From positions 1 to 38,237 of IMG/VR virus record IMGVR_UViG_3300046786_000124: a stretch of DNA of 38,237 bases; one strand, written 5' to 3'. The notes beneath the pieces were generated by a model that searched no databases, had not been told where the DNA came from, and was given only the letters and a program-made list of their open reading frames with translations. Positions 2,122-32,993 of this stretch are shown here, one piece after another; positions within the stretch are counted from its first letter, which is position 1, and each line of letters opens with the position of its first letter. The position numbers and the translations under genes were made by a program. This DNA is from a virus. Lineage: Duplodnaviria; Caudoviricetes.

Positions 2122-3186
2122 ATGACAAGAAAATTAAAGATAGCAGTTTACGCAATCAGCAAGAACGAAGAACAATTTGTAAATCGTTTTTGCGATTCCG
2201 CTAAAGATGCCGATGTAATCCTAATTGCGGATACCGGTTCTACCGATGCTACGGTTGCCCGCGCAATCGAAAACGGCGCGGTAGTTCACGATATTTGCGT
2301 TAGCCCTTGGCGCTTTGATAAAGCCCGCGATACCGCCTTGGCGTTGTTGCCGCGTGATATCGATGTTTGCATTAGCCTAGATTTAGATGAAGTATTAGAA
2401 CAAGGTTGGCGCGAAGAAATCGAACGCGTATGGCAAGAAAATACTACGCGCCTACGCTATAAATTCGATTGGGGTTGCGGCATTAGTTTCTTTTACGAAA
2501 AGATACATCACCGGCACGGCTACCATTGGCATCATCCGGTACATGAATACCCGCGGCCCGATGGCCGTATCCAAGAAGTTTATGCGCATACCGATATGCT
2601 ATTGGTTACGCATCTACCGGATAACACTAAATCGCGCGGCCAATATATGCCGTTATTGGAATTGGCGGTACGGGAGGACCCGCATTGCCCGCGTAACGCT
2701 TTCTACCATGCAAGGGAACTAACCTTCTATGCGCGTTGGCATGATGCCATTACGGCGTTAAAAAAGTACCTAGCAATGCCGGAAGCCAATTGGCAAAACG
2801 AACGATGCTATGCGATGCGTTTGTTAGGCAAATGCAATGATGAATTAGGCCAATCTGTAGAAGCCCATAAATGGTATCGCCTAGCAATTGCCGAAGCGCC
2901 TAATACCCGCGAACCTTGGTGCGAATTGGCTATGTTTGCGTATCGCCGTAATCTTTGGGTTGAATGCTATAGCGCGGCCAAATCATGTTTGGAAATCAAG
3001 GATAAGGCGTTGGTTTATACGATGGACCCCGAGGTATGGGGGGCGCGGCCTTGGGATTTGGCAAGCCTAGCCGCATGGCAATTGGGGTTAAAAGATGAGG
3101 CTACCCAACTTTTAGAAGAAGCCCTAAAATTAGCCCCCAACGATGAACGATTGAAAAACAATCTTCAACTAATGAAACCAACCTAA
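2122..3186 (+). CDS. Glycosyltransferase family 2 with C-terminal TPR-like repeats
   Basis: AISKNEE, ADTGSTDAT, FDKARD and DxD-type SLDLDE motifs; helical TPR-like C-terminal half. Confidence 0.85.
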   Translation: MTRKLKIAVYAISKNEEQFVNRFCDSAKDADVILIADTGSTDATVARAIENGAVVHDICVSPWRFDKARDTALALLPRDIDVCISLDLDEVLEQGWREEIERVWQENTTRLRYKFDWGCGISFFYEKIHHRHGYHWHHPVHEYPRPDGRIQEVYAHTDMLLVTHLPDNTKSRGQYMPLLELAVREDPHCPRNAFYHARELTFYARWHDAITALKKYLAMPEANWQNERCYAMRLLGKCNDELGQSVEAHKWYRLAIAEAPNTREPWCELAMFAYRRNLWVECYSAAKSCLEIKDKALVYTMDPEVWGARPWDLASLAAWQLGLKDEATQLLEEALKLAPNDERLKNNLQLMKPT

Positions 3187-3196
3187 CGGTAACGCC

Positions 3197-3367
3197 ATGA
3201 ATGAAACGGATGCCCGCCTAAATAGCCATGAAGCGGTTTGCGCATTGCGCTATGAACAGATAAACGCCCGCCTAAAGCGTTTGGAAGGCATCTTAATCAA
3301 GGCTTCCGGCATCATGCTTTGCGGCATGGCCGGCGTTATTTGGGTATCTTTAATCAAGGTTGGCTAA
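3197..3367 (+). CDS. 56-aa membrane protein, coiled coil plus C-terminal TM (holin-like); not in the ORF track
   Basis: Hand translation MNETDARLNSHEAVCALRYEQINARLKRLEGILIKASGIMLCGMAGVIWVSLIKVG; fills the gap between neighbouring genes. Confidence 0.65.
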   Translation: MNETDARLNSHEAVCALRYEQINARLKRLEGILIKASGIMLCGMAGVIWVSLIKVG

Positions 3368-3368
3368 C

Positions 3369-4088
3369 ATGGTTACGGCTAAGAAAACCGTTAAACCGCC
3401 CGCCAAAGTAGCACCGGTTAAACGATCTATTCCAAAGCCTAAAGCGGAACCAAAACCCAAACCGCAACCTAAAGTTGTTCCTAAACAACAAACGAATGTA
3501 GATAAGGTTATCGGCCTTATTCAATGGGTAGATAACCCGTTTAAGTTGTTTACGGTAATCCTTCTTTCTTTCCTATTCTTTGCCGGTTACTTTGCTTGGG
3601 ATTCGCGCCAAGTAATCCTACACGCCATAACAACGCATGAAAATATGCCGCAATTGGCTAAACAGGAAGATTTAATACCGCCGGCGCAATCATTACTTAA
3701 AGATGTTGATGGCATTATTTTGTTGGTACACAAAGCCAACTTGGCTACCAATTCCCGAACAACGGTTCTAGCGCTTAACGGCGATGGAACGCGGGAAAAG
3801 AAAATAGAAGGTACGGTTACATCGTTGTTTAACGCAAGCGCCGATAGAAATAGCGCTATGGTTGCCATGCTAAACGGCGAAGTAATTTGCGAAGATTTCA
3901 ACCCATCATCCAAGGTAGGCGAATGGGGCGCTAAACAGGGCGTAAAGTTTATTTGCCGCGGTAGCATCCCGCCCGATATGGGTAAGTTTGCCGGCTATGT
4001 AGCCATTGGGTTTAAAGATAAAGTAGAAGATATAGCCGCGCTTAAAACGCGAATTAACCTAGCCGCAACGGATATGGCGGATGAATGA
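3369..4088 (+). CDS. Single-TM membrane protein with large C-terminal domain; possible T4 T-like (class III) holin
   Basis: Lys/Pro-rich N-terminus, one TM (LFTVILLSFLFFAGYFAW), ~160-aa C-domain; in the lysis region; ATG at 3369. Confidence 0.5.
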   Translation: MVTAKKTVKPPAKVAPVKRSIPKPKAEPKPKPQPKVVPKQQTNVDKVIGLIQWVDNPFKLFTVILLSFLFFAGYFAWDSRQVILHAITTHENMPQLAKQEDLIPPAQSLLKDVDGIILLVHKANLATNSRTTVLALNGDGTREKKIEGTVTSLFNASADRNSAMVAMLNGEVICEDFNPSSKVGEWGAKQGVKFICRGSIPPDMGKFAGYVAIGFKDKVEDIAALKTRINLAATDMADE

Positions 4089-4369
4089 AATGGTTTCTTG
4101 TTGGCGCTTTGGCCGCATGGTTGTATGTTTCTGCGCAATCAAGATGCGTAGTTAATGATTTCTATGCGATAAGTTGGATGGGCAACCCTAGCGATAGGCA
4201 CCAACAACTTTCATTATGGCTAACAACTAACGGCAATAGTTGTTCATCGGAACAACTTGTTATTATTTGGAACAACCTTGCCATGTGGGCCGGAACCGCC
4301 GATAGTTCCGAACTACGAAGCAAGATTTTGCATTACTACGCGAAAGCAATGGAAAGGGAAAAGAAGTGA
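4085..4369 (+). CDS. Small exported protein with signal peptide and two Cys; possible antiholin
   Basis: MKWFLVGALAAWLYVSA signal-like N-terminus; ATGA overlap with the upstream gene. Confidence 0.45.
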   Translation: MKWFLVGALAAWLYVSAQSRCVVNDFYAISWMGNPSDRHQQLSLWLTTNGNSCSSEQLVIIWNNLAMWAGTADSSELRSKILHYYAKAMEREKK

Positions 4370-4605
4370 TTTCCCTACACAAATGGTATCCGTTTGTTCA
4401 TCCAAGGCCCTTTGATGTTCAAACCATTGCGTTGGAAAAGCGCGCGGAACGGTTAGATAATGAATACCGTTTAGAAGTTAAAGCACAAAAAGTTAGGGAA
4501 GCCGTAGAAGCCTACGATTTAGAACTTTACAACAAGCGGGCGCGGCAAAATACGGTTGAACTAGAAGTATTTAGGGATACCAAAAGATTTCAAGTTTTAG
4601 TTTAA
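4366..4605 (+). CDS. Hypothetical charged helical protein (79 aa)
   Basis: GTGA overlap with the upstream stop, GGGAAAAG RBS; fills the operon. Confidence 0.55.
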   Translation: MISLHKWYPFVHPRPFDVQTIALEKRAERLDNEYRLEVKAQKVREAVEAYDLELYNKRARQNTVELEVFRDTKRFQVLV

Positions 4606-4615
4606 GGGGATACAA

Positions 4616-5119
4616 ATGGATTGGTTAAAAACTATTGCGCCTACGATTGCTACCGCTATGGGCGGCCCGTTGGCCGGCATGGCCGTAGATGCCATTGGTA
4701 GCGCCCTTGGAATGAAGGATGCAACCAAAGAACAAGTTAAAGATTTGCTTGCAAGCGGAACCCTAACAAGCGATCAAATGGCAAGCATTAAACAGGCGGA
4801 TGCAACGCTAAAAGTTCGTATGAAAGAACTTGAAATCGATATGGAAAAGGTACACGCCGGCGATCGGAATTCTGCTCGTGAAATGGCGGCGCGAACGGGG
4901 GATGTATGGACGCCGCGGATTATGGCGTTGGTTGTATTTATTGTTTGGGGCGCGGTTAACTACAAGTTGTTTAACGGCACAATTAACGGCGATATGCGCG
5001 AACTAGTTGCGCGCGCCTTGGGAACTTTAGATGCGGTTCTAATGGCGGTAATTTATTACTACTACGGTTCATCATCTAGTAGTGCGGCAAAAACCGAAGC
5101 AATGGCGGGGAAAAAATGA
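4616..5119 (+). CDS. Putative holin-like membrane protein
   Basis: APTIATAMGGPLAGMA N-terminus, two C-terminal TM segments ending YYYGSSSSS; immediately upstream of the endolysin. Confidence 0.65.
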   Translation: MDWLKTIAPTIATAMGGPLAGMAVDAIGSALGMKDATKEQVKDLLASGTLTSDQMASIKQADATLKVRMKELEIDMEKVHAGDRNSAREMAARTGDVWTPRIMALVVFIVWGAVNYKLFNGTINGDMRELVARALGTLDAVLMAVIYYYYGSSSSSAAKTEAMAGKK

Positions 5120-5544
5120 AATTAACCGAACACTTTTCGTTAGAAGAACTAACGCATACCGATCACCGCGAATTGGATAACACGCCAAACGATGCGGAAT
5201 TGGCTAACCTAACGCGCCTAGCGGAATTCCTAGAAGAAGTTAAAACGGTTCTTGGCGGCAAACCTATTATGGTTAATTCTGCTTTCCGTTCTAAGGCGGT
5301 TAACGATGCGGTTGGAAGCAAAGATACATCGCAACACCGCGTAGGTTGCGCGGCGGATTTGCGGGTTCCAGGAATGGTTCCGGATGAAGTTGTTAAAACA
5401 ATCATCGCAAGCGAGTTGGGCTACGATCAGATAATCCGCGAATTTGATCGATGGACGCATATAAGCATACCGAACGAAGCCGCCCGCGCACCCCGTAAAC
5501 AGGCTTTGATTATTGATAAACAGGGTACGCGCGTTTACGCCTAA
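5116..5544 (+). CDS. Endolysin, peptidase M15A family
   Basis: LTEHFSLEEL, NSAFRS, SQH..GCAAD and WTHIS zinc-peptidase motifs. Confidence 0.88.
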   Translation: MKLTEHFSLEELTHTDHRELDNTPNDAELANLTRLAEFLEEVKTVLGGKPIMVNSAFRSKAVNDAVGSKDTSQHRVGCAADLRVPGMVPDEVVKTIIASELGYDQIIREFDRWTHISIPNEAARAPRKQALIIDKQGTRVYA

Positions 5545-5846
5545 ACTTCTTTAACAAAGATGCCTTCTTTGTTTAGATAGCCCTTGCGGTTTTTGATTTC
5601 ATCATATGCGCCTTTAAGGCATTCAACCAAATCTAAATCGGCGCAAGCGCAACCCATGATTAGCGTAACTAGGATATCGCCGTAGGCATCTTTCATTGCG
5701 GCTATATCTTGTTTGGATATTGCTTCAAACAATTCGTTTAGTTCTTCTTGGGTTTTGATTGCTTGCGCGTAAGGCGTACTATTTTGTACGATGCCGCGCG
5801 CTTCGCCCCATTGAATAACCGAAATTTCTGTATTTGCGTAACTCAT
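5541..5846 (-). CDS. MazG-like nucleotide pyrophosphohydrolase
   Basis: EELNEL...DAYGDILVTL...AYDEIKNRKG pattern. Confidence 0.8.
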   Translation of the reverse strand: MSYANTEISVIQWGEARGIVQNSTPYAQAIKTQEELNELFEAISKQDIAAMKDAYGDILVTLIMGCACADLDLVECLKGAYDEIKNRKGYLNKEGIFVKEV

Positions 5847-6337
5847 GCCGTTTCCCTATCAAACCGTGAATTCATAACTTGTTGTAAATCGAAGTAATCT
5901 TTAAAACATTCGCTAAAAAATACTTGTTGTTCGCTAAACCCGATTAGCGTTCTATCAAATACAAACGCCTTCTTAGGCAATTGCATTTCGCCGCGGATGT
6001 ACTTAACCGCCTTGCTTGTAACGCGCCAAAGGCCCGAACCTTTTACATCTTTATTATCGTTGGGGTAGTTTTCAATTAGCCCCCAATAGCGCAGATTTGT
6101 AAAACTTTTTGCCCGCATGAATTCGCGCGGCGCGGCGCTTGGCATGTGGACCCAACCCTCTTTATCGCCATTTACAAAAATCCAAACCAAAGCCTTGGCA
6201 TCCGTTTTGGTAATTGAATAGCCGTTGTACTTACCGTATCTTTTGCAACAGGGGCAATCGCCGCCTTCGCCTTGTAGAACTTTCAAATAATCTTTGCGTA
6301 TCTTGGCTAAATATTCTTGTTCAAATAGATCGTTCAT
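5843..6337 (-). CDS. Hypothetical protein with CPCC motif (possible Zn/winged-helix)
   Basis: ORF with TAGGA RBS and ATGA overlap with the next gene. Confidence 0.6.
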   Translation of the reverse strand: MNDLFEQEYLAKIRKDYLKVLQGEGGDCPCCKRYGKYNGYSITKTDAKALVWIFVNGDKEGWVHMPSAAPREFMRAKSFTNLRYWGLIENYPNDNKDVKGSGLWRVTSKAVKYIRGEMQLPKKAFVFDRTLIGFSEQQVFFSECFKDYFDLQQVMNSRFDRETA

Positions 6338-6406
6338 TTTGTAGTTTCCTATAAGGCGGGGCTACTAGCGTTCGTCCGGCATTACTGCCCGCGTTCGCCC
6401 CTTTAT

Positions 6407-6655
6407 TTAGAATGGGATATCTTCATCTATATCGGGCATCGCCGGAGCGGCTTGGCGTTGCGGTGTACGCGGTTCAAGCGGCGGTTTAGCGCTTAACCAA
6501 CCATCCCAACTAACGGGGATGTTATCGATTTTTAGGCTAATGCCTTGTTGGCCTTTATCCCAAAGCGTACCTACCTTGGCAAAGCGCTTTTTGTTGTTGC
6601 CTTGCGCATCGGTGTATTCGCCAACTACGGCGATCAAATCTAGTTTATTGGACAT
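6407..6655 (-). CDS. ssb: Small single-stranded DNA-binding protein
   Basis: Beta-rich OB-like body with acidic tail DIDEDIPF; next to the recombinase/exonuclease pair. Confidence 0.7.
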   Translation of the reverse strand: MSNKLDLIAVVGEYTDAQGNNKKRFAKVGTLWDKGQQGISLKIDNIPVSWDGWLSAKPPLEPRTPQRQAAPAMPDIDEDIPF

Positions 6656-7277
6656 GGTTCAATCTTTCATTCAGTTTAAAAATCTTTGCATCAAGTTCTT
6701 CTAAAAACTTAACAATTTCCGCGGCAAGCATTTCCGCATATTCCGCATCATATTCAACGCGTTTAACAAACAATTGCAATCCGTTTGGTAATCGGGGATC
6801 AAACGATACAAAATCACACCATGCGCGGCGCGTACAGGCCATTTGCCATTGCATTTGGGTAAAGTATTTGGTTGGTACTTGATTGTTCAACAATGTATCG
6901 ATATGGGTAGCCGTATTTGGGCATTTGATCTCGATCTGTCCATCCAAGCCTACCAACCCATCGGGCGAAGCGCCGGCGCGTTCAATGATGGGATGCGGAA
7001 CATACCCTACTTCATCTACCAAAACATCCGCAAACGATTCATACGCGGCGCGGGCCAATGGTTCCGTTTCCGTACCCCATTGCATAGCCGCATTGCTATA
7101 CGATTCCGCTACGGTGTTCGTCATCCGTTCGCAGATCAATTGCGCCATGTAGTTTTCACGCGATGCCGAATAGCCGCTTTTAGTTTTAGCGATTACATCC
7201 GCAACGCGGGATGCCGTTACATTCCCTAGCCGCGCGGCAAACCATTCCGGCGTACCTTGTTCCATCTTTTCGATCAT
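6645..7277 (-). CDS. YqaJ/lambda-exonuclease family recombination nuclease
   Basis: QGTPEWFAARLG.VTAS, GASPDGLV, EIKCP and QMQWQM motifs. Confidence 0.9.
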   Translation of the reverse strand: MIEKMEQGTPEWFAARLGNVTASRVADVIAKTKSGYSASRENYMAQLICERMTNTVAESYSNAAMQWGTETEPLARAAYESFADVLVDEVGYVPHPIIERAGASPDGLVGLDGQIEIKCPNTATHIDTLLNNQVPTKYFTQMQWQMACTRRAWCDFVSFDPRLPNGLQLFVKRVEYDAEYAEMLAAEIVKFLEELDAKIFKLNERLNHVQ

Positions 7278-8010: not shown

Positions 8011-8012
8011 GC

Positions 8013-8105: not shown

Positions 8106-8120
8106 GTTTTGTCCTTTGAT

Positions 8121-8303: not shown

Positions 8304-8349
8304 TTTGGTTTCTTTCTAAAAGTCCGCAAGATGTTTGCGGCATGGGTGA

Positions 8350-8377
8350 ATTATAAGCCAACTAATACAGATGTCAA
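8350..8377 (-). promoter_or_regulatory. Leftward sigma70 promoter with overlapping operator
   Basis: TTGACA-16 nt-TATAAT; palindrome TATAAG-N4-CTAATA at 8352-8367. Confidence 0.85.
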
Positions 8378-8413
8378 CAACTTTTTAAAATTATTTTCTA
8401 GGTAGTTTCCCTA

Positions 8414-8648: not shown

Positions 8649-8693
8649 TTCACTTTCTCCTATAAGACCCCAAGAAGTTTGGGGCATGGTGTA

Positions 8694-8721
8694 ATTATAA
8701 GCCAACTAATAACTTATGCAA
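8694..8721 (-). promoter_or_regulatory. Second leftward sigma70 promoter with overlapping operator
   Basis: TTGCAT-16 nt-TATAAT; operator TATAAG-CCAA-CTAATA at 8696-8711, identical to 8352-8367. Confidence 0.8.
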
Positions 8722-8765
8722 GCCTTTTTTAAATTATTTTCTAAGTATTTACCCTAATATGTTGT

Positions 8766-9292: not shown

Positions 9293-10228
9293 ATGGATGA
9301 ACTGTCTTTATACGGAACCGATCTGTTTGGTGATCCCATCAAACCGCGTGCATCCGGCGTTGTTGCGCAACGATTTACATTGCCCCCGTTTTCATTGCTA
9401 GATAGCCGCCAAGGCGAATGGCAAGAACGCAAGCGCGCTTGGCTTTCTTTGGGCCTTAAAAGCGATGCCGGCCGCGATGATGCCTATTGCTACCGCGGGG
9501 CTACTTCTACCGATGATTTCATGGGTAGCGAAATGGCAAAAATAGGAAGCGCGGTTAGCGTATTTGATCCCGTAGTTTGCGAATTAGCCTACCGTTGGTT
9601 TTCGCCAAAAGGCGGGCAAATTGTTGATCCGTTTGCGGGCGGTAGCGTTAGGGGAATTGTTGCCGGCGCTTTGGCTATGAATTATTGGGGATGCGATCTA
9701 CGCCAAGAACAGATCGATGCAAACAACTTGCAAGCCGATTTGATTGAAACCGCAATCCGGCCGCAATGGGTATGCGGCGATAGCATGGTAAAAATGGATG
9801 AAGCGCCCGAAGCGGATTTTGTTTTTTCATGCCCGCCATACGGCGATTTAGAAGTTTATAGCGATGATCCTAACGATCTAAGCAACATGGATTACCATGT
9901 ATTCATAGCCGCCTACAAACGCATCATTTTGCGTAGCGTAAAGGTTATGAAAGAAGATACATTTGCCGCTTTTGTTGTTGGCGATTTCCGCGATAAAAAA
10001 GGGTTCTACCGGAACTTTGTAAGCGAAACAATTGATGGGTTTGAACAGGCCGGCGCTAAGTTGTACAACGAAGCAATCCTAGCAACAAGCGTAGGTAGCG
10101 CGGCCATGCGGGTAACTAAGCAATTTGAAACCGGCCGCAAGATGGCTAAAACGCATCAAAATATGTTGGTATTTTGCAAGGGCGATTGGCGTAAGGCTAC
10201 CGCCAAAATCAACGCGGCGGGGGGTTGA
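9293..10228 (+). CDS. Amino (N6-A/N4-C) DNA methyltransferase-like protein
   Basis: SAM-binding DPFAGG followed by catalytic-type FSCPPY; likely start ATG 9293 after AAGGA. Confidence 0.8.
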   Translation: MDELSLYGTDLFGDPIKPRASGVVAQRFTLPPFSLLDSRQGEWQERKRAWLSLGLKSDAGRDDAYCYRGATSTDDFMGSEMAKIGSAVSVFDPVVCELAYRWFSPKGGQIVDPFAGGSVRGIVAGALAMNYWGCDLRQEQIDANNLQADLIETAIRPQWVCGDSMVKMDEAPEADFVFSCPPYGDLEVYSDDPNDLSNMDYHVFIAAYKRIILRSVKVMKEDTFAAFVVGDFRDKKGFYRNFVSETIDGFEQAGAKLYNEAILATSVGSAAMRVTKQFETGRKMAKTHQNMLVFCKGDWRKATAKINAAGG

Positions 10229-11119: not shown

Positions 11120-11312
11120 AGATTGCGAAGCGCGGGAATGGATAGCCCGTTACCGCAAAAAGCAATTGGAAGAAGGCAAAGGCGAAGCCATTGAATGGTG
11201 GGCCAAGATCATCAAAGATATCGCCGCCAAACGGGGCCAAGCCGCCGCCGATGATTTAAAACGCCGGATGAACATACAAAGGGAATCAAATGCGATACGC
11301 CGCAAGGGTTGA
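11106..11312 (+). CDS. Hypothetical protein
   Basis: MEHFKDCEAREW...; tightly packed in the operon. Confidence 0.6.
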   Translation: MEHFKDCEAREWIARYRKKQLEEGKGEAIEWWAKIIKDIAAKRGQAAADDLKRRMNIQRESNAIRRKG

Positions 11313-13221: not shown

Positions 13222-13547
13222 AATTCCCAAAACACCAATACATCCGTAGCCCTAGCCTATTGCGCAACGCCCGCGAAATCCCATGCCAACATTGCGGGGC
13301 AAACGATGGAACCGTAGTAGCGGCGCATACCAATTGGCAAGGCGGAAAGGGCCGCGGAATTAAGGCGGATGACAACCTTATTGCAAGCCTTTGTTACGGT
13401 TGCCATGCCGAAATCGATCAGGGCAAAAATTTAGATAAGTTTGAACGCCAAAAGATTTGGCTTGCCGCGCATTTAAAAACGGTGCGAAAATTACAGGAAT
13501 TAGGGCTTTGGCCCGAAGATATCCCATTACCCGAAGGATTAACATGA
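13218..13547 (+). CDS. DUF1364/YbcO-like HNH-fold zinc-binding nuclease
   Basis: PCQHCG...AAH...GKGRGIKADD...LCYGCHAEID. Confidence 0.7.
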   Translation: MKFPKHQYIRSPSLLRNAREIPCQHCGANDGTVVAAHTNWQGGKGRGIKADDNLIASLCYGCHAEIDQGKNLDKFERQKIWLAAHLKTVRKLQELGLWPEDIPLPEGLT

Positions 13548-13945
13548 AATTTCGCGCCGAAGCCGCCCAAACAAACGAAACCGATCCGGTTATGCAATTT
13601 GTTCAATGCCTATTGCATAGCGTAACCAATGCGCACATCCTACATTTTCAAACGCCTAGTTTTTCGGAACACATGGCTTTAGGAACTTTCTACGAAGAAG
13701 TAGGCGATTTAGTTGATTCATTCGTAGAAGCATTCCAAGGCAAATATGGTTTGCTTACAAATTACAAAGCGGAATATCAATTGCCGGCTACCGATCCCGT
13801 AATCTACTTAACCTACCTTAAAGATGAAGTAGAAACCTTACGCCGTATGCCTAAGTTCCCGCAAGATAGCGAACTTCAAAACGAAGTAGATAACATCGCT
13901 AATCTAATCAATAGCACCCTTTACAAACTACGATTCCTAAGTTGA
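13544..13945 (+). CDS. Ferritin/Dps-like four-helix protein (DUF5856-like)
   Basis: HILHF...SFSEHMALGTFYE...DSFVE pattern; ATG 13544 after AAGGA. Confidence 0.7.
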   Translation: MKFRAEAAQTNETDPVMQFVQCLLHSVTNAHILHFQTPSFSEHMALGTFYEEVGDLVDSFVEAFQGKYGLLTNYKAEYQLPATDPVIYLTYLKDEVETLRRMPKFPQDSELQNEVDNIANLINSTLYKLRFLS

Positions 13946-14633: not shown

Positions 14634-15005
14634 ATGAAAAAAGCACCAAAACAAATAATCGGCTTTTTGCGTAATCCCGAAACATGGGATGCAAATGTTT
14701 TTGAAACGGCCATTAGAAACGAAGTTGAAAATTCAACGGGCGCATTAACCGCATCCGATGAACTGCTAGTTGGTTCATTGGTTCTAACCGTTGATACTTT
14801 GATCGAAGCGCATATTGGCTTGCAACAAAACGGCGCGATTTACCATTACAACGCGGGCGATGCGCCAAGCCCGTACTACAAGATAAGAACGGAATCTATG
14901 GATAAGGCCATAAAAATCCTAGCCGAATTGGCTTTAGTTGCTAGGGGCCGCCCAAAGATTAAAAACAAGGTATCCGAAGTAGATGAATTATTCGCAACTG
15001 CTTGA
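14634..15005 (+). CDS. terS: Terminase small subunit
   Basis: Size and position upstream of and overlapping terL; P27-like SPYY...LAELAL..R ending. Confidence 0.7.
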   Translation: MKKAPKQIIGFLRNPETWDANVFETAIRNEVENSTGALTASDELLVGSLVLTVDTLIEAHIGLQQNGAIYHYNAGDAPSPYYKIRTESMDKAIKILAELALVARGRPKIKNKVSEVDELFATA

Positions 15006-16662
15006 ACCCGCTTTCCAATATGCAAGGGGCGTAACCCTTGGCGATATACCCGCTTGCGAAGATGTTAAGTTAGCGGCCCAACGATTCCTAGATATGGTTG
15101 AACGGCGGGATGCGCCGTATGAATTCGTACCGGAAAAGGCGGAACACATCCTAAAGTTTGCTAAATTCTGCCGCCATGTAAAAGGCGCGGATGCCGGCAA
15201 GCCTATTACGCTACAACCGTTTCAAGTTTTGTTCTTGGCGGCCATCTACGGGTTCCGCGATAGGAAAGATAAAAGCATCCGATGGGTAACCGATGTTATT
15301 TTGTTTGTTCCGCGCAAATCCGGTAAAACTACCCTTGCATCTATTATTGCGCTTTACGAATTGCAATTCGGGGATGCGGGCGCGGAAGTTTTTACATTGG
15401 CTACCAACCGCGAACAGGCAAGCATTTGTTTTGATTCATCCAAGGCAATCATTGAAAACATGGTTCCGGAATTTCAACAAAAGTTTATCGTTTACCGTAG
15501 CGAACTAAAGAAAGCCGGCGATTCAACTTCTACCTACCGCGCCCTTTCCCGTGAAAACCGGAAAACCGGCGATGGCAAAAACCCATCGTGCGCAATGATC
15601 GATGAAGCCGCGCAGATTACGGAACGCGGTTCAATTGAAGTTTTGCATTCGGGCATGGGCGCGCGGAAGAACCCTTTGCGGATGTATTTAACCACGGCAA
15701 GTTTTACCCGCGAGACGAAATTCTTTGAGGATTTAAACCATTTGCGTAGCGTATTGCGCGGGGCCGCGGAAGATAACTATCGTTGGTTCGGGTTGTTGTA
15801 TAGCATCGATGCCGGCGATGAATGGTCCAACGAAGAAACATGGGCCAAAGCCAACCCGATGCTAGGCATTTCGGTTACAAAGGAACACATTAGGCACATG
15901 GCCCAGGAAGCGCAAGCAAAGCCGGCAAGCCTTAACGAATTCCTATGCAAGCAATTAAACATCTATGTTTCCGCAAATAGCGCATGGGTTGATCGCCGGT
16001 ATTGGGATGATTCCGTTAGCACTATGCCGGAAGATAAACCCGAATCTACTTTTATTGCATTCGATTTGGCCTATTCGCGCGATTTGAATGCGGTTTGTAC
16101 TTTGCACCGATATTCCGAAGAAAAGTTCCATGCGGAATTTCAATTTTTCCTACCGGAAGAAAGTTTAGATTTAATCCCCAACCATTACAAACCTATCTTT
16201 TCCCAAGCGCACCAAAGCGGCATATTGCGGCTAACGCAAGGTAATGTTACGGATTTAAATGAAGTAGAAGCGTACATAAAAGGCCAATGCCTTAAATATG
16301 ATGTAAAGGAAATTGGCTACGATCCGTATAACGCGGCATCGTTGGTTGCAAATCTGTACGCGGAAGGTTTGCCCGTTAAGAAGGTTGGGCAAGGCATGGC
16401 GGTTCTATCTAATCCATCAAAAACCGCGGAACAATTGATTATGAAAAAGGCAATTACACATGATGGCAACCCGTTTGTAGGATGGCAAATCGGGAATACC
16501 GAAGTCTATGTCGATGTCAACGGTAATGTAAAAGTACGGAAGAATGAAGCCGATACATCCGCCAAGGTTGATGGAATTATTGCGATGATTATGGCGTTGC
16601 ATTGCCATCTTGACAATGTTTTCGTTTCTGATACATTCGGATTTAGAAGTTTTGAATGGTAA
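14983..16662 (+). CDS. terL: Terminase large subunit
   Basis: Walker A PRKSGKT, Walker B MIDEA, TTA coupling motif, nuclease FDLA...D, YDPYN and KVDG. Confidence 0.95.
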   Translation: MNYSQLLEPAFQYARGVTLGDIPACEDVKLAAQRFLDMVERRDAPYEFVPEKAEHILKFAKFCRHVKGADAGKPITLQPFQVLFLAAIYGFRDRKDKSIRWVTDVILFVPRKSGKTTLASIIALYELQFGDAGAEVFTLATNREQASICFDSSKAIIENMVPEFQQKFIVYRSELKKAGDSTSTYRALSRENRKTGDGKNPSCAMIDEAAQITERGSIEVLHSGMGARKNPLRMYLTTASFTRETKFFEDLNHLRSVLRGAAEDNYRWFGLLYSIDAGDEWSNEETWAKANPMLGISVTKEHIRHMAQEAQAKPASLNEFLCKQLNIYVSANSAWVDRRYWDDSVSTMPEDKPESTFIAFDLAYSRDLNAVCTLHRYSEEKFHAEFQFFLPEESLDLIPNHYKPIFSQAHQSGILRLTQGNVTDLNEVEAYIKGQCLKYDVKEIGYDPYNAASLVANLYAEGLPVKKVGQGMAVLSNPSKTAEQLIMKKAITHDGNPFVGWQIGNTEVYVDVNGNVKVRKNEADTSAKVDGIIAMIMALHCHLDNVFVSDTFGFRSFEW

Positions 16663-19022: not shown

Positions 19023-20363
19023 ATGTCCCAAGCAATCATTGAAAAATTGGATGCTATCGAAGCCAAGCAAAGCGAAAGCATTGCGGCCGTAGAAGCAAAA
19101 ATCCCCGCCGCCGTTGAAGCGATTAAAAACGAAATGCAAGAAACTATTGCCGCTTTGGAAGCCAAAGTAGCATCGATTCAAGCGCCCGCCGTTGTTAATC
19201 CCGCTAAAACAATTACCGCCGATGTAAACCGTTCCGTTAAAGAACAATTGGCTTCTTTCTACAAAAGCAATGCCCGCGTAGAAAAAGAACTGCAAATTTT
19301 TGCAGATGAAAGCCAAGCCGCGGCATACATGGCCGAAGCATCCGCGCTTACCGGTTCCGGTAACAACCAAGGTGGCCGTACCGCCTACGATCCCGTATTT
19401 GCCGCATTGCGTTTGGCAAATCCTATGCGCGGCGTATCGCGTACCGTTGCAACCGATGGTTCGTCCTACCAGTTTCGCGTCAAGACAGGCAACGCGGGAG
19501 CCGCGTGGGGATATGCAATCCAAAACAACGGCGCGGCAACTACCGAAGATACAACAATTTGGCAAATGGTTTTGCAGGATTTGAATGTTCAATTCCCAAT
19601 CCGTACCGCCGCTTTGGATGATATCGATGGTTTGGAAGCCAATGTCGTGAACGACATGCTCATGGAATTCTCACAGGCTGAAGCCTTGTCCATGATTCAA
19701 AATAACGACCAAGGCTCTACATCATTGCCCTACGGTGGTTCTAACGGTTTGCGTGGCCTAAACCAATATGCCGGCGCTAATTCAACCTATACCGGCGGTA
19801 CAACTTCCGCGGCCGCTTTCGGTTCTAGCGGTACTGGTTCTACAAGCGGTTTGCATAGCCTTGCTACTTATGACCAATTGACAACGAACGGTAACACCGT
19901 AGGCGCGGCTAACATCACTTATAAAGATGTTGTTAACTTTATCTATGCGTTGCCACAGCAATATTGGACCTCAAGCGCTAAGTTTGTTATTAACCCCGTT
20001 TTGCTTGCGCAAATCCGCGGTTTGGTTGATACAAACGGCACGCCAATTTTCGAGCGTATGAGCCCATTGGAAACCGATGGTATCGTTGGCCGTTTGTTGG
20101 GCTTCGATGTTGTTGTTAACAAGTACCTTAATACACCTAGCCAAACTACAACCGGTTCCGCCGGCACAACTAGTTTGTACCCAATGTATTTCGGTGATTG
20201 GTCACGCGGTCACACAATCATTGACCGTTTGAACATGGTTATGCGTCGTTACGATCAGACTCTTCCAGGCTACATTACTTTCTTCGGGGAGAAGAGATTG
20301 AATGCGTCCGTTCGTGACCCTAATGCGATTGTGCGTTACCGTTCTACAGGAACGGCTACTTAA
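19023..20363 (+). CDS. Major capsid protein (HK97 fold) with N-terminal scaffold/delta domain
   Basis: Coiled-coil N-terminus, GRLLGFDVVV and YFGDW motifs; follows the protease. Confidence 0.92.
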   Translation: MSQAIIEKLDAIEAKQSESIAAVEAKIPAAVEAIKNEMQETIAALEAKVASIQAPAVVNPAKTITADVNRSVKEQLASFYKSNARVEKELQIFADESQAAAYMAEASALTGSGNNQGGRTAYDPVFAALRLANPMRGVSRTVATDGSSYQFRVKTGNAGAAWGYAIQNNGAATTEDTTIWQMVLQDLNVQFPIRTAALDDIDGLEANVVNDMLMEFSQAEALSMIQNNDQGSTSLPYGGSNGLRGLNQYAGANSTYTGGTTSAAAFGSSGTGSTSGLHSLATYDQLTTNGNTVGAANITYKDVVNFIYALPQQYWTSSAKFVINPVLLAQIRGLVDTNGTPIFERMSPLETDGIVGRLLGFDVVVNKYLNTPSQTTTGSAGTTSLYPMYFGDWSRGHTIIDRLNMVMRRYDQTLPGYITFFGEKRLNASVRDPNAIVRYRSTGTAT

Positions 20364-20379
20364 TAGTTGCGTTGCCATT

Positions 20380-20409
20380 AGCGGGGGGCGAAAATCCCCC
20401 GCTTTTTTT
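20380..20409 (+). terminator. Rho-independent terminator between the two capsid genes
   Basis: AGCGGGGG/CCCCCGCT stem followed by a T-tract. Confidence 0.85.
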
Positions 20410-20424
20410 AAATAGGAATTCAAA

Positions 20425-21444
20425 ATGTCAATCACCGAAAAAATCTTGAACGGAATCAAACAAGCCATCACCGAAGGCGGCAAGGTAACGATCGACTTGC
20501 GCGAAGCAAGTGCAATTACCGGTTCGGGTTCGGGTGTCGGTGGTAATGTTGTTTTTGATGAATCCTTTGCCGCATTGCGCCAAGCAAATCCTTTGCGCCA
20601 AGGTTCACGCCAAATTATTGTTAACGGTTCGGATGCGCAGTTTGTTGCGAAAACCGGTAACGCCGCAAATTCTACAAACCCTTGGGGTTATACATTTACG
20701 CCTAATAGCGGTTCGCCTAATGTTGATACAACAATTTGGCAATTGCCCGTTCGCGTATTGGTTGCACAATTGCCCATTAGAACGGCGGTGCTAAATGATG
20801 TTAATGGGCTTGATTCAACATTGGTTGAAGATTTGTTTCTTGAATTTGCGCAACTTGAAGGCCAGTCAATGGTTATCAATGATGACCAAGCGGGTTCAAC
20901 TACTACATCAACTGGCGCTACTAACGGTTTGCGCGGTTTGGATACTTACATTAGCGCTTCTACTAGCGCTTTTGGTTCTAGCGGCACGGCTATTACAAAT
21001 GGTATTCATAGTATCGCTACGGTTGGCCTTGGCGGTTCTGCCGTAACCTACGATAAAGTTGTAGAAATGGCTAACGCATTGCCCGCGCAATATTGGGCTT
21101 TGGAATCTACCGCTTGGCACATTCAACCCGCAATGATTCAAACATTACGCGAATTAAAAGATTTGCAAGGTTTGCCTTTATTCTTGGAAGTTGGCGATGC
21201 CGATGGCGCGGCGGTTGGCCGAATTTTCGGTTGGCCCGTTGTTCCTAATCCATACCTTTCCGGTGATTTCCCAATGTACTTGGCAAATTGGAATCGTTTT
21301 TTAACGATTGGCGATACGGAACAAATGAATGTTCAGATGTACGAACAGACGGCCCCTGGGTTTGTAACCATGTATGCGGAAAAGCGCGTAGTTAGCACGG
21401 TGCGGGACCCATTTGCTGGCGTCCGCATGAATATTGATTTCTAA
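20425..21444 (+). CDS. Second HK97-fold capsid protein (paralog with short N-terminus)
   Basis: Colinear with 19023: EASAITGSG, FAALRQANPLR, KTGNA, TTIWQ, QLPIRTA, NGLRGL, ALPAQYW, EKR...VRDP. Confidence 0.88.
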   Translation: MSITEKILNGIKQAITEGGKVTIDLREASAITGSGSGVGGNVVFDESFAALRQANPLRQGSRQIIVNGSDAQFVAKTGNAANSTNPWGYTFTPNSGSPNVDTTIWQLPVRVLVAQLPIRTAVLNDVNGLDSTLVEDLFLEFAQLEGQSMVINDDQAGSTTTSTGATNGLRGLDTYISASTSAFGSSGTAITNGIHSIATVGLGGSAVTYDKVVEMANALPAQYWALESTAWHIQPAMIQTLRELKDLQGLPLFLEVGDADGAAVGRIFGWPVVPNPYLSGDFPMYLANWNRFLTIGDTEQMNVQMYEQTAPGFVTMYAEKRVVSTVRDPFAGVRMNIDF

Positions 21445-27714: not shown

Positions 27715-27715
27715 T

Positions 27716-28396: not shown

Positions 28397-28398
28397 AT

Positions 28399-28845
28399 AT
28401 GATAAGACAAGCAACAAGATACGATATCCCTAGATTGTTAGAAATTGTTGAGGCGTATGCGTATGAAAACCCAATTAAAAAACTTGGCGAACCGTGTAAT
28501 CACTTTCCCCGCTATGTTGAAGAACTATTGTTTAGCATCATTCAAGGGCGCGGGTTCATTTTTATCGATTCGCATTTGCGCGGCGCGATCATTGCTTATA
28601 AAAGTTCTAACATCTGGTCGCCCAAAGTAAAAGAATTAAACGAACTGCTATGGTGGGTAGAACCCGAATACCGTAACAGTACGATAGGCGGCCGGCTTTG
28701 GAAAGCATTTGATAAGCGGGCGGAAGAAATGTTAAAAGCGGGCGATGTAGATTTTGTTTGTACTTCAATATCGGCAAACGGGCCATTGATTGATTACACG
28801 CGCCGCGGCTATAAGCCATTGGGCGCAACTTTCGTTAGGGAATAA
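28399..28845 (+). CDS. GNAT-family acetyltransferase-like protein
   Basis: MIRQATRYDIP and WWVEPEYRNSTIGGRL (acetyl-CoA motif A-like). Confidence 0.75.
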   Translation: MIRQATRYDIPRLLEIVEAYAYENPIKKLGEPCNHFPRYVEELLFSIIQGRGFIFIDSHLRGAIIAYKSSNIWSPKVKELNELLWWVEPEYRNSTIGGRLWKAFDKRAEEMLKAGDVDFVCTSISANGPLIDYTRRGYKPLGATFVRE

Positions 28846-28847
28846 AA

Positions 28848-31800
28848 ATGGTAACTAGTATTATTTTGGCGTTTGAATACATCGGCATGTCAACCGCCGT
28901 TGCTACCTTTGCCGCCAACTTTGCGCTTTCCTATGTTGTTACCCGCGTATTTGGTTCAAATACATCTAACCAACAAGTAGATAACGGCGTTAGGTTGCAA
29001 GTTCCGCCAAGCACCGTTAACGCTATCCCTATTGTTTACGGCGATGCCTATTTGGGCGGAACCTTTGTAGATGCCGCGTTAACTACAAATCAGCGCAAGA
29101 TGTATTATGTTTTGGCGGTTTCAAGCATTAGCCCCAACGGTACTTTTACTTTCGATAGAACGGATATGTACTATGGCGATAGGCTTATTACATTCGAAAG
29201 CGGAACCGGCGCGGATTTGGGTAAGGTTGTAACGCTAACGGATGAAGCCGGCAATGCCGATCCTAAGATTAGCGGCAACCTATACATCTATTTGTTTACT
29301 TCAAACGATGCCGGCGTTATTACGCCTATCAATAGCGCGGGTACATTGCCTAGCGGCATCATGGGTTCCGCAAGCGGATTGGCTAGTTCGCAACAATGGC
29401 CTACAACCGGCCGCCAAATGAACGGTACGGCTTTTGCTATTGTTGTTTTGAACTACAACCGCGATGCGGATACAACAAGCCTTCAACCAATTACATTTAA
29501 AGTTAGCCATAACCTAAACGGCCTAGATCGTGCGCGCCCTGGGGATGTTTGGTATGACTACATGACAAGCCCCGTTTATGGCGGCGCTATCGATCCCGCC
29601 TATGTAGATACAACTACGCAAGGTTTGTTGAATACCTATTCCGATGCGTTGATTACCTATACGGATTCAAGCGGCAATCCGGCTACGCAACGCCGCTACA
29701 AAATTAACGGCGTATTAGATGCCGGCGAAACGGTTATTAACAATGTTGATCGCATCATGTCCGCGTGCGATTCTTGGATGACCTACAACGCGGCATCGGG
29801 CAAATGGGCCGTTGTTGTTAACAAATCCGAAACAACCGCCTACGCCTTTAACGATAACAACATCATTGGCGAAATCCGCGTTAGCGCTACCGATATTTCA
29901 AGTTCCGTAAATCAGGTAGAAGCGCGATTCCCGTTTAAAGAAAACCGCGATCAAGCCGCGTTTGTTAACCTTGAAACGCCGCCCGCTTTGCTTTACCCCA
30001 ACGAACCGGTTAACAAATATTCCGTTACTTATGATTTGGTAAACGATAGCGTACAGGCTACCTATCTTGCTAACCGCGTTTTGGAACAAGCGCGCGAAGA
30101 TTTGATTGTTAACTTTAATACAACCTATTACGGCATCCAAGTAGAAGCCGGAGATGTTGTATCGGTTACTAATACCGACTATGGTTGGTGCGCGCCTACC
30201 TATCCCGATGGCAAACCTTTCCGCGTAATGAAGGTTAACGAAGCCGCGTTAGGCGATGGAACTTTGGGCGCGCGTTTGGAACTAAGCGAATATAACGCCG
30301 ATGTTTATGATGATAAAGATATTACGCAATTTACGCCGGTAGCAAATAGCGGCCTAGTTTCGCCTATTTACTTTTCCGCATTGGCCGCGCCGGTTGTAGT
30401 TGCATCCTACCCATCGGCATCGGTTCCTAGTTTTGATTTGCAAATTACAACGCCGGTAACGGGCCGTTCCGTATTTGCAAACATTTACTATTCAACAACG
30501 CCAACGCCTACTACAAGCGATTTGGTTTTGTTGTACTACACGCAAACATCGGATAACAAACCCGCCCCCGCAAATACGGCCATTGTTTTCCCTAACTTTG
30601 TTTTGCCGGCCGGTACTTATTACTTTGTTTTCAATGTTGGAAATAGCGATAGCCTTTCCGCGTTAAGCGGCGTTAGTTCGGCGTTTGTTTGGAATCCGGT
30701 AGGGATGACAGGCCCAACGGGGCCAACAGGCCCAACCGGTAGCGGAACAAGTGGTACAAATGGTTTAACGGCCATTACGGCGTATAGGGTACAAAGCCAA
30801 TCGGCAAGTACGCCTACATTTACTACGCCTACAAGCGGCGCAACCGCGCCTAGCGGATGGACACTTAGCGCGCCTAGCGTTTCCGTTGGGCAAGTTCTTT
30901 GGTACATCCAAGGCCAATACAATAGCAATTCGGTAACGGTTAGCGGGGTTGCGGCAAATACAACGGCATGGACAGGCCCGATTGCGGCAAGCGTATTTCA
31001 AGATATCCGTTCGGATAATTGGAACGGCGGCAACCCGCCCGTATCCGGTACGCCTTCAACCTACGGTACGGTTGGTTACTACATCAAGCAATCAACCGGC
31101 GATATGTTCTTGAATAGCGTTTATGGCCGCGGCGTAGCGCAATTTGATGGATACAACAACGCCGGCGGTACGGGATACGCAATTGTTATTAACCAATCCG
31201 GTGCGCAAACCGGCGGCGGTTGGTTTAATGCCGGAACCGGCGGCTATGGCATTTCCGCAAATGGCGGAACGGGTAAAGTAGGTATTTATACGCATGGATA
31301 TGGCGGTAATGGTTTAGAAGCCTATTGTTATGGTTCTACGGCCGTTGCAATCCGCGCGGAACACGCATTTGCCTTGCCGGCCCTATACATTTCTAACGGT
31401 ACTATTCGTTGGGGTGTTTACGATATTGCGGCCCCCGCGGGTTCTACAAGTACATTCTTACGCAACGATGGGCAATGGGCATCGCCATCTTCTAGCGGCG
31501 TATCTAGCATTTCAACTAGTAATAGTTCTAGCGGCCTAACCCTTTCCGCATCATCATCTACCGGCGCGGTTACTTTAAGCCTTTCCGGTACGCCTACAAA
31601 CGCTACAAATGCCACAAACGCTACAAACGCAACAAACGCAACCTACGCAACCTACGCAAGTTATTTGGGCGGCATAGCGGATTCCGGATGGGCGCGTATT
31701 TTCCCAACCAATTCCGGAACTGCTAATGCGGCCGGCGCGGGCCTAAACCTTTTTGGTTCATCTTCTACGGGAATTGCCGGCGCTTATATTGGTACAAGCG

Positions 31801-32153
31801 GTTCGGGCAATACCGTTACTTTTGGCGTACAAACAACAAGCCCATCGGATATCCGGTTGAAAGAAGAAATTACGGATAGCGATTTAGGCTTAGATTTTGT
31901 TAAGAAATTGCGCCCCGTTTCCTACAAACTTAAAGCCGATCCCAAGCATCAAAAAGGCTACGGATTTATTGCCGATGAAGTTGAAGAAATCATAGAATTG
32001 GGTTCATCGTTGGTTTATGAAGAACCCGATTGGAAAGTAGGGGATGAAATAGGATTTAAAACAATCCATTACCCTTCATACATTGCGGTTCTAACCAAAG
32101 CAATCCAAGAATTAACGGCCAAAGTTGAAGCATTAGAAGCAAAGGTTAAATGA
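28848..32153 (+). CDS. Central tail fibre/tip attachment protein with C-terminal S74 intramolecular chaperone
   Basis: IPIVYG N-terminal tip motif; SDIRLKEEI...LRPVSY...GFIADEVE...KAIQEL. Confidence 0.85.
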   Translation: MVTSIILAFEYIGMSTAVATFAANFALSYVVTRVFGSNTSNQQVDNGVRLQVPPSTVNAIPIVYGDAYLGGTFVDAALTTNQRKMYYVLAVSSISPNGTFTFDRTDMYYGDRLITFESGTGADLGKVVTLTDEAGNADPKISGNLYIYLFTSNDAGVITPINSAGTLPSGIMGSASGLASSQQWPTTGRQMNGTAFAIVVLNYNRDADTTSLQPITFKVSHNLNGLDRARPGDVWYDYMTSPVYGGAIDPAYVDTTTQGLLNTYSDALITYTDSSGNPATQRRYKINGVLDAGETVINNVDRIMSACDSWMTYNAASGKWAVVVNKSETTAYAFNDNNIIGEIRVSATDISSSVNQVEARFPFKENRDQAAFVNLETPPALLYPNEPVNKYSVTYDLVNDSVQATYLANRVLEQAREDLIVNFNTTYYGIQVEAGDVVSVTNTDYGWCAPTYPDGKPFRVMKVNEAALGDGTLGARLELSEYNADVYDDKDITQFTPVANSGLVSPIYFSALAAPVVVASYPSASVPSFDLQITTPVTGRSVFANIYYSTTPTPTTSDLVLLYYTQTSDNKPAPANTAIVFPNFVLPAGTYYFVFNVGNSDSLSALSGVSSAFVWNPVGMTGPTGPTGPTGSGTSGTNGLTAITAYRVQSQSASTPTFTTPTSGATAPSGWTLSAPSVSVGQVLWYIQGQYNSNSVTVSGVAANTTAWTGPIAASVFQDIRSDNWNGGNPPVSGTPSTYGTVGYYIKQSTGDMFLNSVYGRGVAQFDGYNNAGGTGYAIVINQSGAQTGGGWFNAGTGGYGISANGGTGKVGIYTHGYGGNGLEAYCYGSTAVAIRAEHAFALPALYISNGTIRWGVYDIAAPAGSTSTFLRNDGQWASPSSSGVSSISTSNSSSGLTLSASSSTGAVTLSLSGTPTNATNATNATNATNATYATYASYLGGIADSGWARIFPTNSGTANAAGAGLNLFGSSSTGIAGAYIGTSGSGNTVTFGVQTTSPSDIRLKEEITDSDLGLDFVKKLRPVSYKLKADPKHQKGYGFIADEVEEIIELGSSLVYEEPDWKVGDEIGFKTIHYPSYIAVLTKAIQELTAKVEALEAKVK
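31596..31658 (+). repeat. Seven 9-bp tandem repeats encoding (TNA)5(TYA)2
   Basis: ACAAACGCN-type units read directly from the sequence. Confidence 0.85.
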
Positions 32154-32154
32154 T

Positions 32155-32430
32155 ATGCCAAGAGAAATTAACATCCCCGCGCAACAGATTTACGAAGATA
32201 TCTATTCGTTGCAAGAACTACCCGATAACCAAAGCGTTAGGGTTGTTGTTTGCGTAACAACGCAAGAAGGCGAATTTATCGTTCCTAGCCAATGCCGCGA
32301 ATACATGATTAGCGGTGATATGTATGTAGAACTAAATTCGGCTAATCCGCCTTGGCATCCTAACAAACCGGCGGGTACTTATTTCAATGAAGATTTATGG
32401 CATTTCATTGATTTATTAAAGCAATCTTGA
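32155..32430 (+). CDS. Hypothetical protein (possible fibre chaperone)
   Basis: Starts 1 nt after the fibre stop. Confidence 0.6.
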   Translation: MPREINIPAQQIYEDIYSLQELPDNQSVRVVVCVTTQEGEFIVPSQCREYMISGDMYVELNSANPPWHPNKPAGTYFNEDLWHFIDLLKQS

Positions 32431-32504
32431 TAAGATAGAAACAATACAAGACACCATTAGCCCGTAAGAATTACGGAAGTTCTAACTAAGTTTAGGGAAC
32501 CGCT

Positions 32505-32993
32505 ATGGCGATTTTCAATAAGAACACCCTTGCGCAAGTAAGCGGTTTTGATAACCCAATTCTTGCGGGCGAATTGGTATGGGATCAACAAACCTATTGG
32601 AACCTTACATTTACCAATAGCGCAACCGGCGAACCCGTAGATTTAACCGGCGCAACCATTGATGCGCAGATCGTTCGCCGCCAACTTTCAAACATCATCG
32701 ATACCCGTAACGGCCTTACCTTTGATATTGCCGATTACACGCCTACGCCTAGCGCAATTCCGCTAACGGTTACTAACATTGTTTCGTTGGCCGGTAGTTG
32801 TACATTGGTTATCGATGCCGGCGCTTGGTCCTTGATGCAAACCGATCCCGAACTAGAAATCAACGCGGCCGATCCCGTTGGTTATAGCGGCCGCGTAAAG
32901 GTTAGTTTTCCGCAAGTAGGTTCTACACCCGCGGATGATGCAATTATCTTTTTGTTGTTCTTAGTTCGTAGCGATGGGGTGATCGTGCTATGA
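32505..32993 (+). CDS. Virion adaptor protein (BppU-like pattern)
   Basis: [15 protein letters not shown] pattern; precedes the collagen-like fibre. Confidence 0.55.

Follow-up and report, generated by a model that had tools for sequence, protein, structure and literature searches.

Avoidance of recognition sites is thought to be effective against Type II restriction–modification (R-M) systems but ineffective against those of Type I or IIG, which change specificity too quickly. In the portions of Rusinov 2018 that are available, avoidance mainly concerns orthodox Type II sites and none is reported for Type I or IIG sites, a difference put down to this fast change of specificity (PMC6286503). 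The accessible text of the MANTIS preprint describes asymmetric Type I, IIG, and III sites as not uniformly avoided, with palindromic Type I and some Type III sites doubly depleted (bioRxiv 10.64898/2026.09.23.753747), and Type I pressure is described in the available section of another report as acting on early-injected DNA (PMC12455610). Phage Mu offers a further precedent, since its Mom protein, which has a GNAT fold (bioRxiv 10.1101/861617), has the target S-A-S-N-Y (S, C or G; N, any base; Y, pyrimidine; PMC3299994). Here we describe a virus genome (IMG/VR record IMGVR_UViG_3300046786_000124, Caudoviricetes; “the window” hereafter designates this whole stretch of 38,237 nucleotides) purged of three-base words in which an adenine is flanked on both sides by C or G, i.e., S-A-S (GAG, GAC, CAG, and CAC) and the complementary S-T-S, together S-W-S (W, A or T).

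Compared to these systems, the window resembles the virulent phages in the available portions of Rusinov 2018 in that Type II palindromes were lost by point mutation (ACGT, AGCT, GCWGC, CCSGG, and 27 of the 64 six-base palindromes) and no integrase is annotated among its genes, but differs from them in purging a common three-base core and in showing a measurable footprint of Type I spacing (PMC6286503). With Mu it shares the S-A-S core and a presumed broad protection from many restriction enzymes, at least as described in the available text (PMC3299994), whereas Mom modifies the adenine and the window phage deletes the word, and the GNAT of the window belongs to the tail module and occurs in unpurged relatives as well. 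The depletion of Type III and MANTIS sites in the MANTIS preprint is similar in that asymmetric N6-methyladenine (m6A) targets with S-A-S cores shape virulent phage genomes; in its accessible text, however, single six-base sites are lost from one strand, while the window has lost three-base cores from both (bioRxiv 10.64898/2026.09.23.753747). Phages PA73, KL1, and RcTitan combine a GAG purge with the same Type I spacing footprint, although they belong to a different phage group and spare GAC, whereas the window purges all four words. The closest isolate, Methylophilaceae phage P19250A (KX815270), shares the arrangement of its head- and tail-module genes with the window but has a GC content of 35%, no S-A-S purge (observed/expected ratio, O/E, of 0.64 for GAG and 1.28 for CAG), and no spacing footprint, and its host is not transferable to the window phage. 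A full-text search that covered subscription journals thinly found no paper describing, for phage genomes, either a trinucleotide purge or a spacing footprint. Overall, the purge probably acts as a form of restriction-site avoidance aimed at the core that variable m6A systems have in common, its Type I footprint being measurable, and these genomes suggest that phages facing fast-changing specificities may purge that shared core instead of individual sites.

A genome-wide purge of C/G-flanked adenines

Across positions 2122-32990 (GC 0.455), 500 S-W-S words were observed where base composition predicts 3,483, so that about six in seven are gone. A recount gave numbers identical to the hand counts of the original prediction (2, 6, 2, 2, and 0 in five 240-nucleotide pieces), and its claim of a depletion that crosses codon junctions and affects both strands was borne out. 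Within the 47 core genes called in this analysis, S-W-S words are distributed as 165/146/137 over the three frames, while synonymous shuffles keeping the protein and the codon usage (n = 60) yielded 713 ± 14 and 675 ± 14 words in the two off-frames (minima 680 and 648), i.e., 283 off-frame words observed vs 1,388 in the shuffles. Intergenic DNA holds 59 words vs 237 expected, both strands are depleted to a similar degree off-frame, and only 51 S-W-S words are forced by the protein sequence. Because the off-frame and intergenic counts are this low, the depletion is not one of in-frame codons only, the contrary outcome envisaged by the original prediction.

The exact motif was delineated with a codon-choice model, which considers synonymous choice given the neighboring codons and picks among 2,772 strand-symmetric words of 1–6 bases. 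Its first four picks were CAG, GAG, GAC, and CAC (weights −2.2 to −3.8), even with in-frame codon bias absorbed, and the next picks included ACGT, AGCT, and CCSGG. This pins the motif down to exactly S-A-S, whichever the strand. The purge is graded between the four words, with whole-genome O/E of 0.07 for GAG, 0.14 for GAC, 0.24 for CAG, and 0.33 for CAC. It is also genome-wide, as first proposed, although the initial limits of 2122-32990 proved too narrow: the Gly-rich genes on both flanks (Table 1) are purged in frame as well, with 27 in-frame S-W-S codons among 2,378, and the sites they keep lie mainly at Gly-Gly and Gly-Pro junctions. Over all flank genes, Gly before Gly is encoded by GGC (98), GGT (71), or GGA (11), and Gly before Pro by GGA in 35 of 63 cases, where the alternatives GGC and GGG make GGCC, a word that sister genomes avoid. 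In the 20 bases upstream of genes, ribosome-binding regions mostly read AAGG, AGGG, or GGGG instead of GGAG. Five of the 55 GAG/CTC words remaining in the core lie in ribosome-binding zones and 10 in ATGAG, and many leftover GAG words of PA73 sit in AGGAGT.

Substitutions pooled over nine related genomes were then used in an equilibrium argument, as synonymous sites are near saturation. Where relatives carry the word and the window does not, the central A corresponds to G (1,557 cases) or C (845), and A or T stands in place of the 5′ base in 1,366 cases and of the 3′ base in 1,501. Changes thus affect all three positions and comprise both transitions and transversions, and since they raise GC at the center and lower it at the flanks, a single mutational process is excluded. 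As judged from these sequence comparisons, S-A-S words are lost through selection on the word itself, at synonymous and non-coding sites, and the DNA-level selection against C/G-flanked adenines initially proposed is backed by the codon shuffles, the substitution pattern, and the codon-choice model alike. Three simpler candidates were ruled out: a mutation hotspot, by the changes at all three positions and in both GC directions; codon preference, by the off-frame and intergenic depletion, and no tRNA genes were found in the window; and an mRNA-level nuclease, by the off-frame depletion of both strands.

Other words are avoided too. The original observation that classic palindromes remain abundant holds for GGCC (193), GCGC (343), CCGG (204), and GATC (82), but not for ACGT, AGCT, and GCWGC, which are absent, nor for CCSGG (0 vs 79 expected), and the missing six-base palindromes include 16 of the 52 that are free of S-W-S, ACGT, and AGCT. 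Most sister genomes instead lack CCGG and GATC. Purged and unpurged clades alike avoid about 15–30 six-base words each, most of which we take to be familiar Type II sites, and these word signatures split near-identical freshwater phages into groups that probably reflect their hosts. Separately, many of these genomes are short of ATTGTA/TACAAT, ATTCTA/TAGAAT, and ATTTTA/TAAAAT, words that resemble −10 promoter boxes and hence may be avoided as cryptic promoters.

A footprint of Type I spacing around surviving words

We examined the bases around surviving S-A-S words, expressing as “relief” the log units gained when T is missing at positions +7 to +10 from the adenine. Beyond positions −2 and +2/+3, the clearest effect is that of a T at +7 to +10, downstream only. 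The same spacing is found in Blow 2016, where all 26 distinct bipartite m6A motifs in the available part 1 of Table S4 place the second-strand T 7–10 bases after the A, with offsets, by hand count, of 7 (8 motifs), 8 (8), 9 (8), and 10 (2); 24 of these motifs are labelled Type I and 2 Type II (PMC4752239). Relief amounts to +0.40 in the window, +0.37 to +0.59 in the sister genomes (8 of 8), and +0.55 in five window-like loci, against −0.19 to +0.17 in control windows. It is higher in PA73 (+1.20), KL1 (+1.02), and RcTitan (+0.84), and reaches 0.03 in T7, which encodes Ocr, 0.04 in P19250A, and 0.12 in lambda.

The penalty peaks at +7 and +9 both in the window (−0.29 and −0.39) and in the PA73 group (−0.58 and −0.78), and by direct count 175 of the 414 sites in the window have no T at +7 to +10, vs a fraction of 0.337 expected (p = 2.7e-4). 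Without this T, normal frequencies are reached by CAC (1.05) in the sisters and by CAG (0.98) in the PA73 group. In window-like and sister genomes, relief is also detected at AAG, GAA, GAT, and CAT and not at AAC, TAG, or TAC. A scan for specific bipartite words returned few (18, 17, and 2), including interrupted palindromes of Type II; the arrangement with A on the left and T on the right in 10 of 18 and 13 of 17, vs 34%, is suggestive only. As a readout of Type I pressure from sequence, this footprint can be computed for any phage genome, and since it is strongest in culturable phages (PA73, KL1, and RcTitan), the idea is directly testable.

Contexts of methylated adenines

Contexts of m6A were tallied by hand from the available parts of Table S4 of Blow 2016, keeping 122 of 133 Type IIG rows (11 non-m6A or unknown rows dropped) and, from the 60 of 84 Type III rows taken, 53 (7 dropped). 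S-A-S surrounds the m6A in 45 of the 122 Type IIG and 28 of the 53 Type III motifs, GAG being the commonest context in both (Type IIG: GAG 21, AAG 17, CAG 13, AAT 8, GAC 7, GAT 7, CAT 5, CAC 2, degenerate S-A-S 2; Type III: GAG 11, CAG 8, CAC 4, GAC 3, degenerate 2, AAG 2; PMC4752239). The targets CAACAG and CAACAC given in the accessible MANTIS text also have S-A-S cores (bioRxiv 10.64898/2026.09.23.753747), and Mme2I has GAG and CAC cores. Over 16 contexts, with motifs ending in A or with degenerate flanks excluded, the tally correlates with the net penalties in the window (Spearman −0.59, p = 0.016), but AAG departs from this trend in being unpurged.

Flanking context also matters in the relatives. 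In four sister genomes, GAC, CAG, and CAC have O/E of 0.99, 1.32, and 0.93 in contexts unlike R-M sites vs 0.21, 0.18, and 0.70 in R-M-like ones, with GAG climbing from 0.03 to 0.41 in those unlike R-M sites, while CAG in the PA73 group falls from 0.98 without T to 0.23 with two or more. This context dependence is what cumulative escape from many R-M systems predicts.

Distribution among relatives

Among 194 relative loci, which overlap one another, 129 have a GAG O/E below 0.25, and in each of these GAG has the lowest value of the four; 7 loci have all four words below 0.5. Three purge levels can be distinguished, with one clade (about 82% identity in the terminase large subunit, TerL) unpurged, and most close relatives purged of GAG (0.10–0.17) and partly of GAC, CAG, and CAC. 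All four words are purged in the window and in loci L022, L048, L101, L145, L190, and L264, which have a common signature of CCGG allowed, CCSGG absent, and GATC at about half. In a quick TerL tree with many unresolved forks, the window, L022, and L048 fall at three separate places; the four-word signature may therefore follow host and not descent, although recombination would produce the same picture. The four words also vary independently, as CAG reaches 1.03–1.13 in two genomes (G003 and G004) with GAG at 0.15–0.17. In the other phage group, PA73, KL1, and RcTitan have O/E of 0.01–0.02 for GAG, 0.22–0.36 for CAC, 0.40–0.60 for CAG, and about 1.0 for GAC (0.012 for GAG and 0.95 for GAC as a group). 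One close relative (L066, positions 1905-3545; G029) carries a divergent TerL (72–73% identity) with 5 GAG sites, like native ones, vs 58 in an unpurged relative; as this gene is equally GAG-purged, the signature was likely imposed on imported genes.

Candidate causes of the purge

We favor cumulative escape from many m6A-type R-M systems as the probable explanation of the purge. In this view, the targets of many fast-changing host systems (Type I, IIG/IIB, III, and other m6A types) would have S-A-S in common around their methylated adenine, and every S-A-S word retained would add slightly to the cumulative risk of being cut; single specificities would turn over too quickly to clear any one site, and the three bases they share would remain under constant pressure. 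Counted in favor of this explanation were the graded rather than absolute purge, unlike that of ACGT and AGCT, and the loss of many Type II sites in the phage and its relatives. Among the four causes originally proposed, it is the one to which Type I spacing and context dependence lend weight, with a host defense of short degenerate specificity retained as a possible extra layer. To the purge, the selection on the word, the broad avoidance of Type II sites, and the extra penalty at Type I spacing, all demonstrated above, this explanation adds two elements that we infer, namely that the hosts carry such R-M systems and that their sum accounts for the full depth of the purge.

A number of results weigh against this explanation. 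The available portions of Rusinov 2018 report no avoidance of Type I or IIG sites (PMC6286503), and AAG, the second commonest IIG context in our tally (17 of 122), is yet unpurged (O/E 1.17). The least R-M-like contexts of the window are still at 0.09–0.36, 63 of its 64 N-S-A-S-N contexts weigh below −1, and a uniform penalty outperforms a scaled sister profile (log-likelihood −6,854 vs −6,966), the best simple joint fit being half the sister profile plus a uniform penalty of about −2.0, i.e., a roughly 7-fold and flank-independent reduction. The Type I effect itself accounts for about 0.4 of 2–3 log units, and window words without T at +7 to +10 stay depleted (O/E 0.05, 0.08, 0.18, and 0.32). 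In the window, GAG and GAC show no relief without T (14/288 vs 12/174 and 26/330 vs 23/207), the signal coming from CAC and CAG, and a weaker relief is also found in unpurged relatives (0.08–0.22, n = 7) and in three unpurged loci bearing a DNA methyltransferase (MTase; 0.25). Finally, the model understates its standard errors, since each pair enters twice, once from either codon, and the relatives do not represent independent data; the footprint claim is carried by replication across genomes and by the direct count. Given the uniform remainder, either the repertoire of the host pool is varied enough to hit every context, or a degenerate reader acts in addition.

Such a reader would be a defense of the host group that, besides ordinary R-M avoidance, recognizes any unmodified S-A-S (or, in the wider clade, GAG), acting inefficiently at each site and doing damage in proportion to the number of sites, a scenario that we regard as possible but doubtful. 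It would account for the uniform penalty of about −2.0 log units, with no five-base context spared in the window, for the PA73 group, in which GAG is nearly gone while GAC is intact, for GAG being the lowest word throughout the 129 GAG-purged and overlapping loci, and for deeply purged contigs with one signature at three places of the TerL tree. Conversely, contexts are strongly heterogeneous in the window, where 64 five-base words gain 140 log-likelihood units over four triplets and CAG weights range from −5.4 to −1.0, and the four words vary independently among relatives, as in G003 and G004. In the fitted 64-context profile, ACAGA is tolerated, whereas CCAC, CGAC, and GCAGG are avoided. A genuine flank-independent part would point to a defense with a three-base target; our full-text literature search, thin for subscription journals, found no such enzyme and no report of such a defense. 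Tentatively, then, an undescribed host defense might read three-base S-A-S on double-stranded DNA, its GAG form being more widespread, and the phage might have cut its exposure about seven-fold beyond ordinary restriction sites, in which case the same escape would have arisen convergently in several unrelated families of phages.

The MTase of the window (Table 1) enters two further explanations. In one, which we consider improbable, this enzyme marks the phage DNA and a modification-dependent host nuclease (Type IV, Mrr-like) cuts marked S-A-S, deepening an older GAG purge. Consistent with this, the window and the three loci with the closest MTase copies (89–96% identity) are all deeply purged, and the gene is missing from 33 of 34 relatives, the remaining one giving a weak match, including 13 near-complete, GAG-purged but less deeply purged relatives. 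The association may however reflect a single acquisition, 40 of the 43 MTase-bearing loci (45–78% identity) are unpurged, and a costly MTase would be expected to be lost. Five loci are uninformative on this point: the deeply purged L264 stops before the MTase position, and L022, L048, L145, and L190 do not cover it. Since the GAG purge is present without the gene, the MTase, from these sequence distributions, is a mark of the deep-purge lineage and cannot be the cause of the clade-wide GAG purge. The same data leave little room for the other explanation, which had been advanced in the original prediction and in which the phage removes adenines that its own MTase cannot protect; only the deep purge around the three closest copies speaks for it, and palindromes with W-flanked adenines are absent all the same. 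A PDB sequence search with the MTase returned weak matches only. In the contigs with the closest copies (the window, L101, L341, and L342), CCGG is tolerated (O/E 1.1–1.8), while it is purged in most relatives without the MTase, and this enzyme might protect CCGG; more distant copies sit in CCGG-free contigs, contrary to this idea.

It is very unlikely that the phage avoids a nuclease of its own that attacks host DNA at S-A-S, another of the causes first proposed. The window has four nuclease genes, and the YqaJ/ERF early module is present in all 10 purged genomes clustered and in none of the 8 unpurged ones, this co-inherited module being the only candidate cause to emerge from clustering by gene content. 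However, just 9 of 80 YqaJ loci have a GAG O/E below 0.25, nuclease homologs thus occurring in unpurged contigs, GAG is also purged in PA73 and KL1, whose recombination module is annotated differently, and the dependence on T at +7 to +10 is not explained. A compositional or mutational bias of the host lineage copied by the phage is just as hard to sustain, as changes that raise and changes that lower GC both remove the word, close relatives are unpurged, the window encodes no detected tRNA, and the GAG purge recurs across phages of three named genera, the hosts of which presumably use GAG and CTC freely.

Two specific targets were tried and rejected. Avoidance of the DarT2 motif, presumably TNTC, does not fit counts of 13 for TCTC but 420 for TTTC and 334 for TATC. 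For a Mom-type S-A-S-N-Y target, there is no pyrimidine preference at +3 (C +0.11, T −0.11); hence the parallel with Mom initially drawn stands for the S-A-S core as motif, while its N-Y part is not seen, and the GNAT gene occurs in purged and unpurged relatives (one unpurged copy being 77% identical) as well as in P19250A.

Genome content and environmental context

The 38.2-kb record carries an exact 126-base repeat at both ends (1-126 and 38098-38223) and, based on this repeat, is taken as a complete, circularly assembled genome. It corresponds to a P19250A-like freshwater siphovirus (61% TerL identity to P19250A), with HK97-type head genes, a lambda-like tail, a YqaJ/ERF recombination pair, an N6/N4 MTase, and a tail GNAT (Table 1).

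Table 1. Coordinates of the purged regions and of the genes discussed in the text
Feature	Position	Strand	Remarks
Core region purged of S-A-S/S-T-S words (GAG, GAC, CAG, CAC and complements)	2122..32990	.	Counts, codon shuffles, codon-choice model
Gly-rich genes, purged in frame, with leftover sites at codon junctions	27..2107	+	2 in-frame, 107 second-frame sites
Collagen-like and Gly-rich tail-region genes, partial purge	32990..38114	+	
N6/N4 DNA methyltransferase (DPFAGG ... CPPY)	9293..10228	+	PF01555; PADLOC MTase_II
Tail-module GNAT	28399..28845	+	PF00583; not linked to purge
YqaJ exonuclease	6645..7277	-	Three further nuclease genes at 11290, 13218, 14062; not linked to purge
Terminase large subunit (TerL)	14983..16662	+	Used for placing the phage and its relatives; 79 IMG/VR loci
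Two HK97-type capsid genes in tandem (446 and 339 aa)	19023..21444	+	Also in P19250A and relatives

The TerL gene contains 25 S-W-S words in the window vs 220 in the same gene of the unpurged L027. The first of the two capsid genes is the least purged core gene, with 43 sites/kb, and the second has 28/kb. At the protein level, the first capsid is 82–87% identical to purged relatives and mostly 78–85% to unpurged ones, while most other genes differ far more between these groups, which suggests that this gene was exchanged between purged and unpurged phages.

Three public sequencing runs, all freshwater metagenomes, contained at least half of the sampled words, and contigs of three freshwater runs, the best of which may be the sample of origin, match long pieces of the window with zero differences. 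At most 0.11 of the sampled words were present in RNA runs. For the host, a search of genome collections gave a single match, a 4.8-kb contig in a Chitinophagaceae metagenome-assembled genome that may be misbinned, and 201 Chitinophagaceae genomes gave this contig and short matches, nearly all to one low-complexity stretch, none of which reads as a CRISPR spacer. Isolate searches with YqaJ and the endolysin pointed to mixed hosts, and a Limnohabitans phage paper provided no link to the host of the window.

Other genes encode a glycosyltransferase-TPR protein (2122-3186), a MazG-like pyrophosphatase (5541-5846), and a DUF5856 protein (13544-13945). An element of about 100 bases is duplicated at 8316-8413 and 8660-8756, with a spacing of 344 bases, upstream of small leftward genes, and these two copies probably represent early promoters.

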